Origin: a virus
Taxonomy: Duplodnaviria > Heunggongvirae > Uroviricota > Caudoviricetes
Strand: one strand, 5' to 3'
Length of the DNA: 40,772 bases
IMG/VR virus record: IMGVR_UViG_3300028456_000002
Location: 1-40,772 of that record
In this document: positions 1,826 through 28,199 of the stretch, one piece after another
How the letters are laid out: each line of letters starts with the position of its first letter
Position numbering within the stretch: the stretch's first letter is position 1
The notes under the pieces: model-generated
Database searches by the model: none
What the model was told of the DNA's origin: nothing
Seen by the model: the letters and a program-made list of their open reading frames with translations, nothing else
Program-made: the position numbers and the translations under genes

Positions 1826-5226
<3,401 letters not shown>

Positions 5227-21136: not shown

Positions 21137-21520
21137 TCAGCGTTTCAACTGAAAGTGAGGCCCGTCTTTCAGTGTTTTCCAGTCCCCGCCCCATTCGATG
21201 GCAGTCCCCAGCTCTGCGGCAGCCTGTTTAAATGCCTGCGCGATTTTCTCGTACAGAGGCCAGTCCCATGACACCTGGCTGCCAATGTAGGCCACAACAT
21301 CCACCGCATCACCGGTCAGGTGGCGGCTGTTCATGGTCTGGCTTTTCCCTTCCGCGACCAGCTGTTTCTGGCGATACTTACTGCGCAGGCCTTCCGTAAT
21401 ACCGAAATCAACCTCCGTCAGCTCCAGCGCACGGCGAACGACAGCAACCAGCTGTGGTTTGACGCCCTCCAAATTTTTTTCACTGCGACGGCTGAATCTG
21501 AATTTACCCGGCATATTCAC
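21137..21520 (-). CDS. Endolysin, peptidase M15 (D-Ala-D-Ala carboxypeptidase-like)
   Basis: 127 aa with ...SRHLTGDAVDVV... zinc-peptidase motif. Confidence 0.8.
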   Translation of the reverse strand: MNMPGKFRFSRRSEKNLEGVKPQLVAVVRRALELTEVDFGITEGLRSKYRQKQLVAEGKSQTMNSRHLTGDAVDVVAYIGSQVSWDWPLYEKIAQAFKQAAAELGTAIEWGGDWKTLKDGPHFQLKR

Positions 21521-21792
21521 CTCAACAATGGAAAGATTTTTATGACGTTCCCGCGTGCGCGTATCACCAGCACGCAGAACAGCAGATTAAAAAACACTTC
21601 CAGCCAGCCCGTTGCTAACGGGCGACCACACAGATAGCTGAGTGGAGCAAAGCCATAAAGCAGCATCAGCAGCCAGGCCAGCCATGACATCAGCGGTTTG
21701 TGTCTGGAGTCACGGCGACGATAAAAAAAGAGCGTCAGCACGATAACCGTGCATAACGCCACATTCAGCAATCCGGGAAAGTTACTTAACAT
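21517..21792 (-). CDS. Small membrane protein in lysis cassette (second holin or antiholin candidate)
   Basis: Start taken at MLSNFPGLLNVALCTVIVLTLFFY...; three hydrophobic segments; between holin candidate and endolysin. Confidence 0.45.
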   Translation of the reverse strand: MLSNFPGLLNVALCTVIVLTLFFYRRRDSRHKPLMSWLAWLLMLLYGFAPLSYLCGRPLATGWLEVFFNLLFCVLVIRARGNVIKIFPLLR

Positions 21793-22174
21793 TGCCGCCT
21801 CCTCCGCCACGCAGACGGGAGAACAGGCCGGACACCAGTGATGCAATATCCTGCTGGTGGATGAATGACAGAATCTTCACCGACACCACTGACACCAGTA
21901 CTGCACACAATGCGTCAACAGGTGCACCGTCAAACCCTGTATGCTTTACCAGCCAGGATGCCAGAACCTCTGCGCCCAGCACGCCGATAATGAACGACAC
22001 CAGAAAATGCGCCGCCACACGCCAGGCTGAAAGCGCCTGCGGCATCGTTGCCACAAATAACGCCCCGGCGAACGCACCAAACACAATCCCGAAATCCGTT
22101 CCGGTAAACAGCCCGAATACCGTCGCCCCGCCGAGCGCCGCAGCCGTGCCGGAACCGGATAAGGGTTCAGACAT
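21782..22174 (-). CDS. Putative holin
   Basis: 130 aa with three hydrophobic helices, Gly-rich C-terminus; first gene of the lysis cassette with AGGAGA ribosome-binding site. Confidence 0.5.
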   Translation of the reverse strand: MSEPLSGSGTAAALGGATVFGLFTGTDFGIVFGAFAGALFVATMPQALSAWRVAAHFLVSFIIGVLGAEVLASWLVKHTGFDGAPVDALCAVLVSVVSVKILSFIHQQDIASLVSGLFSRLRGGGGGNVK

Positions 22175-22191: not shown

Positions 22192-22215
22192 ATAAAAAAG
22201 GGCCACCAGCGGCCC
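22192..22215 (-). terminator. Rho-independent terminator immediately upstream of the holin gene
   Basis: Minus strand GGGCC-GCTGGT-GGCCC followed by TTTTTTATTT. Confidence 0.6.
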
Positions 22216-22348
22216 GTAATAAAACACCCCGTCAAAGGCACCCGCCGATGTCTTTTATGTGATGTATTCAGATTCAATACACGTTGAGTAAAGCGCAGAT
22301 ATGAAAAAGGCCCGCCGCAGCGAACAATAAAGAAACGAAATTCTGAAT

Positions 22349-22372
22349 AAAAAAAACCGCCAGATACGGCGG
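22349..22372 (-). terminator. Rho-independent terminator downstream of the tRNA pair
   Basis: Minus strand CCGCC-GTATCT-GGCGG followed by T8. Confidence 0.65.
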
Positions 22373-22734
22373 TTGGTCAATGCAAGAGATACATTCTTAA
22401 TTGTAATAAAACCGAGGTGTCGGGTGCCTCCCGAAGTATTCCGTCCTGTATGAATACTGTGGTTTCCCGCTAAACCGACTCTTTTAACCACCCTCGCCCT
22501 GAGGAGCGCCCCGATGGTGTTATTTACAACACCAGAATGATACATCACCGACCCTGCCAGGAAATACAAAATCTCCACCAGCAATGCACCATTCTGCTGC
22601 CGTAAAAAAATCAGCACTGAAGCTAACCTGGCCTCAAATCATAGCCAGAGAACAGAATGCTTTTTCAAAACAACCTGCTCCCACGTAATAAAAATACGCC
22701 AGTGCTGCAATACAATAAGGCTTATTTCAAATGC

Positions 22735-22809
<75 letters not shown>

Positions 22810-22812
22810 ATA

Positions 22813-22888
<76 letters not shown>

Positions 22889-22940: not shown

Positions 22941-22968
22941 CCGAAAAAGAATATTAATGAGGACAGAC
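22941..22968 (-). promoter_or_regulatory. Candidate sigma70 promoter for the tRNA pair
   Basis: Minus strand TTGAAA, 16-17 nt spacer, TAATAT, about 45 nt upstream of the tRNA-Thr 5' end, AT-rich upstream region. Confidence 0.4.
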
Positions 22969-23057
22969 ACTTTTTCAATTAAAAACCGTGTCAATATTCG
23001 TAAATATATGTATAGATTTCCATTATTTATGAAATTCAGAAATAATGACACGCACAT

Positions 23058-23984
23058 TTAACGATTATTTTTTATTTCAATTACAGTCTGATTAAATCTC
23101 TCTTCTTCCAGCTCCACACCTATTGCACGCCTTCCCAGCGATAATGCTGCCTTTATTGTTGACCCCGACCCCATAAAAAAATCAGCAACCAAATCTCCCG
23201 GATGGCTGCTGGTAGTAATTATCTGACGCAACATATCCGCCGGTTTCTCACAGGGATGTTTGCCGGGGTAATACTGCACAGGTTTGTGCGTCCAGACATC
23301 TGTATACGGAACGGCAGCCGATACGGAAAAATAACGCCGCAGAGATTTGTACTCATCCAGCAGACTGGCATATTGCCGGTTCAGTTCACTGTATGTGCTG
23401 ACCAGCTGGTGGTGTGGCTTTTCCAGTTCACCGCGCTGATGTTTTTCTGCTGCAACACGCGCAAACAACGCCTGTAATTTCAGATAATCGCCTTCGTTCG
23501 GCAACTGCCACTGACTGATACCAAACCAGTGCGAAGCCATGTTTTTCTTTCCGGTGGCTTCCGCTATCTGTTTTGACGTTATTCCCAGTGATTCACGCGC
23601 ATCACGAAAGTAAGAAATCAGCGGAGCCATCACGTGCTGCTTAAGCTCGCGCCCCTTTGCCGCATAGCCGTCATTTTTGGGCTGGTATGGCCCCTGATAA
23701 TGTTCTGCAAACAGAATGCGTTCTGTTGCCGGAAAATACGCTCGCAGACTTTCCTTGTTGCACCCGTTCCAGCGCCCGGACGGCTTCGCCCAGATAATGT
23801 GGTTCAGCACATTAAAGCGTTCACGCATCATGATTTCGGTGTCAGATGCCAGGCGATGACCACAGAACAGGTAAAGACTTCCGGCAGGCTTCAGTACCCG
23901 CCAGAATTGCGCCAGACACTGGTCCAGCCATTTCAGGTAATCATCGTCGCCCTTCCACTGGTTATCCCAGCCCTCGGGCTTCAC
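23058..23984 (-). CDS. DNA methyltransferase (N6-adenine/N4-cytosine type); annotated ORF lacks the catalytic N-terminus because of a frameshift
   Basis: 308 aa ORF from a GTG. The same frame is open upstream to 24089 and encodes KYPVVELINADCLEFIQTLPENSVDLIVTDPPYF (DPPY motif). An ATG at 24105 (MINTVK) is in another frame; the A5 run GTAAAAATAT would join them if it were A4. Confidence 0.8.
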   Translation of the reverse strand: MKPEGWDNQWKGDDDYLKWLDQCLAQFWRVLKPAGSLYLFCGHRLASDTEIMMRERFNVLNHIIWAKPSGRWNGCNKESLRAYFPATERILFAEHYQGPYQPKNDGYAAKGRELKQHVMAPLISYFRDARESLGITSKQIAEATGKKNMASHWFGISQWQLPNEGDYLKLQALFARVAAEKHQRGELEKPHHQLVSTYSELNRQYASLLDEYKSLRRYFSVSAAVPYTDVWTHKPVQYYPGKHPCEKPADMLRQIITTSSHPGDLVADFFMGSGSTIKAALSLGRRAIGVELEEERFNQTVIEIKNNR

Positions 23985-24255
23985 TTTAAAGTATGGCGGG
24001 TCTGTGACTATCAGATCGACAGAGTTTTCCGGTAAGGTCTGGATAAATTCCAGGCAATCAGCGTTGATTAACTCAACGACTGGATATTTTTACAGTATTA
24101 ATCATAGATCAATAAGCACTTCTCTGATAGGCTCATTCCGCTTTTGCGCAAAGCAGATGGGCCTGAGGTTTGCTTGTGACCCCAACGCATGAGCAGATGG
24201 CTGGCAGGTGCCGCTAACACCCACCAGCCGCCCATTACCACAAATAAAAAAGCCT

Positions 24256-24456
24256 TCACTGCGGAAGGCGTCTGTAACAACCGAACTGATAATCTGCCAG
24301 ACCCGCCATAACAAGCTGGGTCAGTATTAACTGGCAGCGTTCGCGTGAAAGGTAAGTATTCTGTGCAATCTCCCCGACGGTCGCCGGTTCGGTGACGCTT
24401 AACTCATTAAACACCACTCTGGCGGTTTCGGTCATATCCTGCTGTTTTAGCATGTC
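24256..24456 (-). CDS. Small hypothetical protein, first ORF after the late terminator
   Basis: Start taken at MLKQQDMTETARVVFNELSV... preceded by AAGGA; about 66 aa. Confidence 0.4.
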   Translation of the reverse strand, partial: DMLKQQDMTETARVVFNELSVTEPATVGEIAQNTYLSRERCQLILTQLVMAGLADYQFGCYRRLPQ

Positions 24457-24576
24457 TTTTTTCCTTTTCTGGTTAACGTGACATACCAATAACTCTTGTC
24501 CAAAAAGCCAGCAAGCTGAAAGACCGGCATTCGCAACCACCAGCGCATTTAACGTCCTGTACCGCTTTTCGGGCAC

Positions 24577-24600
24577 AAAAAAACCCGCTTGGCGGCGGGT
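24577..24600 (-). terminator. tR'-like terminator just downstream of Q
   Basis: Minus strand CCCGC-CGCCAA-GCGGG followed by T7. Confidence 0.6.
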
Positions 24601-24653
24601 TTTGCTTACTTTGCCATCGCGTACAAAATCGGCAAAATATCAGATTTGCATGA

Positions 24654-24682
24654 AATATATGCTTTTTAATCTACTTTTGCAA
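24654..24682 (-). promoter_or_regulatory. pR'-like late promoter overlapping the Q stop codon
   Basis: Minus strand TTGCAA, 17 nt spacer, TATATT; a short transcript would end at the terminator at 24577..24600, the lambda pR'-qut-tR' layout. Confidence 0.55.
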
Positions 24683-25361
24683 TACTTTGCTTTGAAAATG
24701 CCGCCTTTTGTTCCGAACGCGTTCTCATTACCAACAATAAAGCCTCACTATCCAGCTGATGGAAAATGTGTTTCATTGCAACCCAGTGACCAGTAAATGT
24801 TTTGGACCAGTTTTTAGTTGTCACTCCCGCCAGTAATGCCAGATCCTGGTATTCATAACCTTCCCCGCCAAAAAGTTCTGCTTTTACTGCCTGCGCCGCC
24901 AGCCAGATTAATTTTTTCAGGCGTTCCCGTGTTTTCTCTGCAATTTTCCTGTTGCCAGAATGAGCCTTAAACTCTTCCCATGCCCAGCGGGTTATGGTGA
25001 CCTGATACTCCCAGCAAATATTTCCGCTGTAACACCACAACAACCAGGTTTTATGAGGTTCTTCAAGAGACAGAACAGCCCGTCGCCATGAGGATGTCGA
25101 AAACTCAACCTGACTTACCAGAGGAATTGACGTCCCCTTCGCCAGCGATTGTTTCCCCGGGATTGGTGGATTATCCCGCGTGATAATTTTTCCAGTCGCT
25201 TCATCGCGGTACCGGATTTTTTTACGCCTGTAACGCCCTGTATCGAACATGGCATTCTCCTGCCAGGCTTCAAGCTGACCTTTTGTTGCCCCACTCAAAT
25301 CGGCGGTGGCGATAATGAGCTGCTCACGAACAAACTGTAAATACTGGTTATTCATGCGCAC
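24666..25361 (-). CDS. Late gene antiterminator Q-like protein
   Basis: 231 aa ORF directly upstream of the pR'/tR'-like elements and downstream of rusA; assignment is positional, family not verified. Confidence 0.6.
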   Translation of the reverse strand: MRMNNQYLQFVREQLIIATADLSGATKGQLEAWQENAMFDTGRYRRKKIRYRDEATGKIITRDNPPIPGKQSLAKGTSIPLVSQVEFSTSSWRRAVLSLEEPHKTWLLWCYSGNICWEYQVTITRWAWEEFKAHSGNRKIAEKTRERLKKLIWLAAQAVKAELFGGEGYEYQDLALLAGVTTKNWSKTFTGHWVAMKHIFHQLDSEALLLVMRTRSEQKAAFSKQSIAKVD

Positions 25362-27493: not shown

Positions 27494-27530
27494 CGCAAAA
27501 AACAAACCAAAAAAAAGACAAAACCACAAA

Positions 27531-27590
27531 CAATACAAACAATACAAACAATACAAACAATACAAACAATACAAACAATACAAACAATAC
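27531..27590. repeat. Tandem repeat, 9-bp unit CAATACAAA, 6 perfect copies plus a partial seventh
   Basis: Read directly: caatacaaa repeated head-to-tail from 27531 to 27584, then caatacagg; intergenic. Confidence 0.9.
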
Positions 27591-27667
27591 AGGCGCATCG
27601 ATAATTAATTAACTTATCGGGCTACAAGGTAATATAACTTCAGTTAAAATTATTAATCTCTTATTCG

Positions 27668-27693: not shown

Positions 27694-27763
27694 TTAAGTG
27701 CGGGTGCTTTGAGGATGCCTGACACATCAGAGGTGGCGAGGGATTTCTCCCTCGCCTGGTCTC

Positions 27764-27919
27764 TTACTCCTCAGATTCGTAAGCTGTGAAGACAGCGACC
27801 TCCGTCTGGCCGGTTCGGATTCGTACCTCGCAGAGGTCTTTCCTCGTTACCAGTGCCGTCACTATGACGGTTAAACAGATGACGATCAGGGCGATTAACA
27901 TCGCCTTTTGCTGCTTCAT
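27764..27919 (-). CDS. hok: Hok/Gef family type I toxin (HokD-like), inside an N-terminally extended mok frame 27764..27976
   Basis: MKQQKAMLIALIVICLTVIVTALVTRKDLCEVRIRTGQTEVAVFTAYESEE, 51 aa, single TM helix, near-identical to chromosomal Hok proteins; the 70-aa in-frame upstream extension corresponds to mok. Confidence 0.85.
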   Translation of the reverse strand: MKQQKAMLIALIVICLTVIVTALVTRKDLCEVRIRTGQTEVAVFTAYESEE

Positions 27920-28199
27920 AGCCTGCTTCTCCTTGCCTTTCGGCATGTAAGAGGCTAACCTACATGTGCAAAGCATGAAATTGGCCTCAGATTAATGTTA
28001 AGCGTCTTGCCGGACGCGTAATGTTAACTGGGGCTTTTCTCTATCTGCCGTTGGTGTTCATGCCTGAGACAGATAGCCTCAAGCACCCGCAGCAATTCTA
28101 CTTAACTATCCTTTTCCCGCAAATCGTTTTTATCCCCAGCGGCAAATCGAATACACCACCAGCGCCACTGCCATCGCGATTCCTACTGTTGTGAATGCC

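Follow-up and report, generated by a model that had tools for sequence, protein, structure and literature searches.

A phage-82-type pR'/qut/tR' late-control unit very probably follows the Q gene of a lambdoid prophage

The DNA analysed here, a window of 40,772 nucleotides from IMG/VR virus record IMGVR_UViG_3300028456_000002, very probably carries a phage-82-type pR'/qut/tR' late-control unit of a lambdoid prophage, together with a Q antiterminator of the phage 82 family. We observed directly which elements make up the unit, how they are spaced and conserved, and to which family the Q protein belongs. The element itself is ordinary and well understood, being a sequence variant of the known pR'/qut/tR' unit, and we call it ordinary because a 156-bp region adjoining an annotated Q gene is present in 1989 of 5426 complete E. 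coli genomes (∼37%). Every gene in the late-control part of the window is encoded on the minus strand, and the preliminary description, which had placed the unit at 24577–24682, gave its position correctly as long as these coordinates are read on that strand.

The Q gene and the pR' promoter

The Q gene and the two promoter hexamers are arranged as follows.

24666–25355, minus strand: Q antiterminator gene, phage 82 family, 229 aa from the ATG at 25355
24677–24682, minus strand: pR' −35 hexamer TTGCAA, within the Ile-Ala-Lys codons of Q and identical in the phage 82 record X92588
24654–24659, minus strand: pR' −10 hexamer TATATT, after a 17-nt spacer

The Q protein matches PF06323 over the full length of the profile (297 bits, Pfam search), and its amino acid sequence is 75% identical to phage 82 Q (X92588), 73% identical to the Q82-like protein of phage 434 and 64% identical to Gifsy-1 AntQ. 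A GTG at 25361, upstream of the ATG, is likewise open; database homologues are 229 aa long. Among three Q families, which show no obvious sequence similarity to one another, PF06323 corresponds to Q82 (PMC9388147).

The final codons of Q (ATT GCA AAA GTA GAT TAA) include the hexamer TTGCAA, and the stop codon (TAA, 24668–24666, minus strand) lies inside the 17-nt spacer between −35 and −10, which bears out the earlier proposal of a promoter TTGCAA-17-TATATT overlapping the Q stop (24682–24654, minus strand). The hexamers match the consensus at nine of 12 positions, at optimal spacing. Taken alone they are not above chance, as 8 kb of the window held 13 promoter-like sites against 10.3 expected from shuffled sequence. 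This figure, and the location of the −35 within conserved codons, would suit a reading in which the hexamers are a chance match in the coding end of Q and the hairpin at 24603–24577 terminates the early, Q-containing operon. We give that reading almost no credence: the composite TTGCAA-N17-TATATT-N11-TGATAT-NN-TGCC has a single match in the window, whereas 100 shuffles that preserved dinucleotides gave none, even when three mismatches were permitted, and further evidence against it comes from the phage 82 promoter and from related loci, as described below.

Start site, pause element and a proposed mechanism

In the pR' of phage 82, the −10-like pause-inducing element is nearer to consensus than that of lambda and includes an extended −10, a discriminator-like GCC lies at +15 to +17, and a sigma70-dependent pause occurs at +25/+26, where the wild-type 3' base is U (PMC5001585). 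The stretch from −31 to +30 of this promoter suffices for Q82 loading (PMC4914094). When the GCC of the window is set at +15 to +17, as in 82 pR', the predicted +1 is the A at 24647, seven bases past the −10, which gives the following two features.

24645–24647, minus strand: predicted transcription start, the first A of AAA, +1 = 24647 (from the published 82 pR' positions)
24631–24642, minus strand: predicted sigma70 pause element, TGATATTTT at +6 to +14, followed by GCC at +15 to +17 (from conservation and PMC5001585)

With this numbering TG falls at +6/+7, TATTTT at +9 to +14 and a T at +25 (24623), and at the sequence level the window leader fits every listed feature of 82 pR' (TGATATTTTGCC at 24642–24631, T at 24623). 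Such exact agreement with a characterised promoter argues against chance hexamers. A pause is predicted at 24623/24622 (+25/+26).

We compared the window with 82 pR' by way of the end of X92588, an 82-identical E. coli locus and published descriptions. X92588, besides which the phage collection yielded no phage 82 record, ends at the Q stop codon, and its last 48 nt, including TTGCAA, are identical to the locus in E. coli N3 (L006). The leader of this locus, TATATT-TCATGT-AAATCTGATATTCTGCCAATGTTGTAC, differs from that of the window at few positions. From −35 to +30 the two loci are ∼89% identical, and they have in common the −10, the AAA start, TGATATT, GCC and the T at +25.

From the phage 82 literature we infer the start site, the pause, the binding and loading of Q and the read-through, which would combine as follows. 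Host sigma70 RNA polymerase would start constitutively at about 24647 on the minus strand, from the promoter overlapping the last Q codons. Region 2 of sigma70 would then re-bind the non-template pause element at +6 to +14 and hold the complex paused at about +25/+26. Without Q, polymerase would escape and stop at the hairpin and U7, releasing a leader RNA of ∼70 nt, even in the lysogen. Q, made from the early operon, would bind the promoter-region DNA and board the paused complex, and the Q-modified complex would resist tR' as well as the later terminator-like hairpins. Transcription would thereby proceed through a small ORF, a frameshifted methylase gene and two tRNA genes into the holin and endolysin genes.

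The unit shares with phage 82 a Q protein of PF06323, TTGCAA in the last Q codons, the 17-nt spacer, TATATT and a short terminated leader. It differs in the distal leader and terminator, which has CCCGC/GCGGG in the window and AAGCCCGAGG...CCTTGGGCTT in the 82-type locus, and in the distance to the lysis genes, which begin ∼320 nt after Q in 82-type loci whereas 2.4 kb of cargo is inserted in the window. In the phage 434 record, a terminator is annotated at the equivalent place after the Q82-like gene.

The region had earlier been likened to lambda pR'/tR'. The logic and the gene order do follow lambda, where a constitutive promoter after Q, a sigma70-dependent promoter-proximal pause and a terminator also precede the lysis genes; the version, however, is that of phage 82. 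Lambda Q belongs to PF03589 and has no detectable sequence similarity to the PF06323 Q of the window. The pause element of lambda lies at +1 to +6 with a pause at +16/17, compared with an element at +6 to +14 and a predicted pause at +25 in the window, and lambda makes a 6S RNA of 194 nt where the window leader has ∼70 nt. Judged by its sequence, the window unit is a functional analogue of the lambda-type pR'/tR' rather than a member of it.

Conservation across Q82-family loci

A pattern scan of one genome per species recovered 67 further loci with Q82-family genes, from Citrobacter, Enterobacter, Klebsiella, Kluyvera, Raoultella, Leclercia, Serratia, Rouxiella and others, whose Q identity ranged from 93% down to 44%. 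Anchored on TGATAT, 71 distinct Q82-family sequences (E. coli and ∼30 genera) align without gaps. Across these 71 loci at least 90% conservation is reached by TTGCAAAA, by the −10, which reads (C/T)ATATT, and by each of TGATAT, the T at +14 and the C at +17. The spacing of −35, −10 and TGATAT is constant in ∼70 distinct loci from many enterobacterial genera, which counts against a chance match, while most other leader positions are variable. The conserved leader positions therefore define the pause element as TGnTATnnT, the consensus of an extended −10, whose distance from the promoter is fixed.

The synonymous sites within the −35 are frozen, with the Ala codon being GCA in 63 of 63 loci and the Ile codon ATT in 39 of 39, whereas a comparison Ala codon eight positions upstream is GCG in 37 cases, GCA in six and GCT in five. 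Constraint therefore acts on the DNA too, which again speaks against hexamers that arose by chance in the Q coding end. Part of the −35 conservation is at the protein level, because the hexamer overlaps conserved Ile/Leu-Ala-Lys codons.

A terminator-like hairpin followed by a T-run is present in 67 of 70 distinct loci, with the 3' end of the stem at +48 to +114 (median +72). Its position is kept across loci and its sequence is not, many of the stems being unrelated. A second motif match, in L046, lacks a −10 and was set aside as a chance match.

The −35 is palindromic, and a match to the lambda CII consensus TTGCN6TTGC overlaps it, the plus strand reading TTGCAATACTTTGC at 24677–24690; in the record of phage 434, the corresponding position is labelled as a CII binding site and as the −35 of paQ. 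TTGCAA and the neighbouring TTGC might on this basis be a CII-type site for an antisense, paQ-like promoter that damps Q expression. We think this unlikely, since no lambda-type CII was found among the window ORFs tested, the immunity region being of the YdaS/YdaT (Rac-like) type, and since the second TTGC half-site is just ∼50% conserved across loci. Such a site would, moreover, add a function to pR' and not replace it.

One further sequence detail concerns TGCAAA, which occurs twice on the minus strand, 33 nt apart, at 24676–24681 (−34 to −29, within the −35) and at 24643–24648 (−2 to +4). The second copy is TGTAAA in most relatives and is absent from one leader class.

The leader hairpin and the tR' terminator

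Two hairpins are predicted in the leader.

24607–24639, minus strand: predicted leader hairpin 1, 24639–24630 pairing with 24616–24607
24577–24603, minus strand: tR' intrinsic terminator, core stem CCCGC/GCGGG (24599–24595 / 24588–24584), loop CGCCAA, U7

The tR' stem can be extended through A-U pairs to 24603–24580, after which come seven T ending at 24577, and its folding energy is −14.1 kcal/mol (z = −2.4). It begins 51 nt past the −10, equivalent to +45 from the predicted start at 24647, in keeping with the ∼55 nt estimated previously. The terminated leader is predicted to be about 68–71 nt long.

Hairpin 1 and the terminator together make up the predicted fold of the whole window leader (−22.6 kcal/mol, z = −2.3). 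The 5' arm of hairpin 1 overlaps the pause element and the GCC, and its loop contains the predicted pause site. Most related loci fold a hairpin at the same place, with arm sequences and registers that vary by class, while ∼10 loci have the terminator at ∼+30 and no hairpin 1. RNAalifold found no consensus structure across all leader classes, and within the class of the window covariation in hairpin 1 did not exceed that in shuffles (149/500), the core UGCC/GGCA being invariant and hence uninformative. In that class 75% of cells pair, against 31–50% when the partner is slid; swapping 5' and 3' halves between leader classes gave p = 0.04, and shuffling of the 3' half gave z-scores of −2 to −3.7 in seven of 10 classes. 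The 3' arm lies beyond +30, so hairpin 1 is not needed for Q82 loading in vitro (PMC4914094); candidate roles, if it has any, are stabilisation of the released RNA or insulation of the terminator.

In megablast comparisons with phage genomes the region splits exactly at the terminator. The upstream part, 25400–24572 (rusA, Q, pR' and terminator), matches vB_EcoM-606R7 and PPompW prophages at ∼92%, the downstream part, 24602–24200 (terminator and small ORF), matches phiP27 and several Stx2 phages at 88–95%, and the two sets of matches overlap in the tR' hairpin only (window 24572–24602). In phiP27, the same hairpin and the AATGCGCTGGTGG stretch that follows it come after an unrelated GIY-YIG gene and a different Q-like protein of 127 aa, and in 606R7 and the O157 strain Xuzhou21 this hairpin is followed by tRNA genes. 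The phiP27 arrangement is a point in favour of taking the hairpin for an early-operon terminator. Shared as they are by otherwise unrelated contexts, the hairpin and AATGCGCTGGTGG indicate that the terminator of this phage-82-type unit is a common linker at which modules are exchanged.

Cargo between tR' and the lysis genes

The genes and sites downstream of tR' are listed in the order in which transcription from pR' would reach them.

24256–24453, minus strand: 65-aa small ORF, the first gene past tR', with weak TrmB/winged-helix similarity
24246–24269, minus strand: terminator-like hairpin (24269–24252) and U6, overlapping the small-ORF stop; −9.5 kcal/mol, z −0.9, moderate
23058–24105, minus strand: N6/N4 DNA methyltransferase (PF01555), frameshifted near its start
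22951–22978, minus strand: promoter-like TTGAAA-16-TAATAT, ∼60 nt upstream of tRNA-Thr
22735–22888, minus strand: tRNA-Thr(UGU) (22813–22888) and tRNA-Gly(UCC) (22735–22809)
22194–22637, minus strand: non-coding stretch of ∼430 nt before the lysis genes, with several terminator-like sites
22637–22617 (weak), 22374–22355 (with U8), 22325–22310 and 22215–22200 (with U6), minus strand: terminator-like sites before the holin
22174–21782, minus strand: holin (PF16931)
21846–21517, minus strand: second holin-like ORF (PF05449)
21520–21137, minus strand: M15 peptidase endolysin, the lysis cassette as a whole spanning 21137–22174

The small ORF has annotated homologues in phiP27 and in two of the related loci (L001 and L004). 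The methyltransferase gene has a 1-bp insertion near 24076, where alignment shows CAGTCGTTGAG in the window and CAGTTGTGAG in three relatives, and the frame from the ATG at 24105 therefore stops after 10 codons. The frame that encodes the DPPY motif has no start codon before the GTG at 23984; the gene may be a pseudogene, or the extra base may be an error of sequencing.

Terminator-like sites are enriched in 8 kb of the window, where we counted 17, mostly on the minus strand, against 8.2 ± 3.0 expected. The preliminary description had allowed for two more terminators before the lysis genes, which is too few, as the route from tR' to the holin holds at least five terminator-like sites. A weak resemblance to STnc100 (19 bits) covers the full length of the family at 22345–22540 and ends at the strongest of the terminator-like hairpins there. 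True STnc100 (RF02076) matches occur in the late-operon cargo of three related prophages (L002, 4292–4464; L013, 2171–2368; L069, 5195–5402). A search of the region before the lysis genes for anti-sRNAs like AsxR and AgvB gave, at E up to 1, no Rfam match besides the weak STnc100-like one.

It is plausible that the cargo is under late control, as far as transcription arriving from pR' is concerned. The earlier proposal that this holds for all of the cargo goes further than the sequence supports, the methyltransferase being frameshifted besides. The cargo units end in terminators of their own and one has a promoter-like site, and own terminators together with a promoter are the usual make-up of autonomously expressed morons (PMC4104026). 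In 606R7 and Xuzhou21, a near-consensus TTGCAA-17-TATTAT lies directly before the tRNA genes; given such promoter-like sites in these two and in the window, the tRNAs may be transcribed independently of Q.

Relation of the leader to IsrJ

Short terminated pR' transcripts are known from lambda (6S RNA), 21, phi80, 82 and P22. The window leader aligned end to end with Rfam isrJ (RF01393) at 22.1 bits, below the gathering score of 37 (E = 0.018–0.034), and over its full length with isrK (RF01394) at 23.8 bits, below the gathering score of 50. Identity with IsrK was rejected, most of that score coming from the terminator.

IsrJ has been described as an island-encoded, HilA-dependent sRNA of ∼74 nt that efficient invasion requires (PMC2330248), and its invasion phenotype has also been reported in bioRxiv 10.1101/787010. 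At gathering score, IsrJ lies 19 nt past the Q stop in loci of Citrobacter sedlakii, Raoultella planticola, Enterobacter wuhouensis and Atlantibacter hermannii. The regions concerned, including the Gifsy-1 stretch, are as follows.

L016: 4706–4780
L052: 4706–4777
L030: 4691–4764
L025: 4706–4785
L079 (Gifsy-1 region): 2198–3121

In Gifsy-1 (NC_010392), the composite promoter and pause motif has a match at L079 3015–3060, directly after anrP, at a site where Rfam IsrJ scores 100 bits. Ahead of the motif stands ATTGCAAAACTGGATTAA, which is left over from the C-terminal codons of Q (IAKLD*). Between antQ and this promoter lie isrK, which overlaps a c4-a1b1 match and adjoins a match to Rfam C4 antisense RNA, and anrP; this stretch looks like a cassette inserted in the end of Q, because AntQ matches only residues 1–218 of 229. 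By its sequence, Rfam IsrJ thus seems to be the leader that Q82-type late promoters yield on termination; within the limited collection of literature that we searched, we found no statement of this link.

Like IsrJ, the window leader lies directly downstream of a Q82-family pR', starts at an 82-type promoter with (UG)(U/C)AAAUCUGAUAU and continues through a hairpin, an A-rich linker and a terminator. The lengths are similar (∼70–75 nt for IsrJ, ∼70 nt for the window), and the two agree in their first 15 nt, in the A-rich linker and in how the terminator is laid out. The stem sequences of hairpin 1 and of the terminator differ from those of IsrJ, and the window falls below the family cut-off. 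The Gifsy-1 unit, moreover, is split from antQ by the isrK/C4/anrP cassette, whereas the window unit abuts Q. StxS and IsrK resemble the window leader in being short lysogen RNAs with a promoter beside a Q gene and an intrinsic terminator (PMC7547250, PMC4825925); StxS comes from another pR' and is processed from a 258-nt transcript.

Could the leader, then, be more than a by-product? We hold it possible, though less likely than not, that it is a constitutive and putatively trans-acting prophage sRNA of the IsrJ type. A stronger version, in which the promoter–terminator pair is primarily a stand-alone IsrJ-type sRNA gene acting in trans in the lysogen and late control is secondary or absent, we likewise regard as a minority reading. 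The spread of gathering-score IsrJ matches over four genera and Gifsy-1 argues for it, as do the end-to-end alignment of the window leader, the detection of IsrJ as an RNA with a reported invasion phenotype (PMC2330248; bioRxiv 10.1101/787010) and the precedent of StxS, which shows that a pR'-tR' leader can act as a regulatory sRNA (PMC7547250). Conservation, however, is highest in the bases that serve Q loading, those of the promoter and of the pause element for sigma70, and not in the RNA body, which is freely replaced between loci; hairpin 1 is missing altogether from some of them, and the score of the window remains under the IsrJ cut-off. Nor does an sRNA gene exclude the phage-82-type explanation, which we continue to prefer.

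Other features of the window

A toxin-antitoxin locus of the hok/sok type lies in the nin region (27764–28088, minus strand). It comprises a sok RNA match of 112 bits (27914–28088) and a Hok-like ORF of 70 aa (27764–27976), followed by a terminator at 27695–27678. At 27526–27591, inside an A-rich low-complexity stretch, the 9-bp unit ACAAACAAT (plus strand) forms a perfect tandem repeat of 7.3 copies, which reads on the minus strand as a spurious CLYCLY... ORF.

Implications

Annotation gains from fixed coordinates for the promoter, the pause site and the terminator, and recognising a phage-82-type switch helps to predict the Q dependence of the lysis genes, and probably that of the cargo too. 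Given the link between IsrJ and Q82, an RNA reported as a virulence sRNA would come to be seen, like StxS, as arising from phage antitermination control. If the link is true, the loading site of AntQ in Gifsy-1 would be the isrJ promoter and not isrK, and every Q82-type prophage of the Enterobacteriaceae would produce IsrJ-like RNAs. For the Q82 family as a whole, a sequence definition of the qut site emerges from ∼70 loci whose fixed positions are confined to TTGCAAAA, the −10 and TGATAT-NN-T, and this comparative picture of qut could be of wider use.
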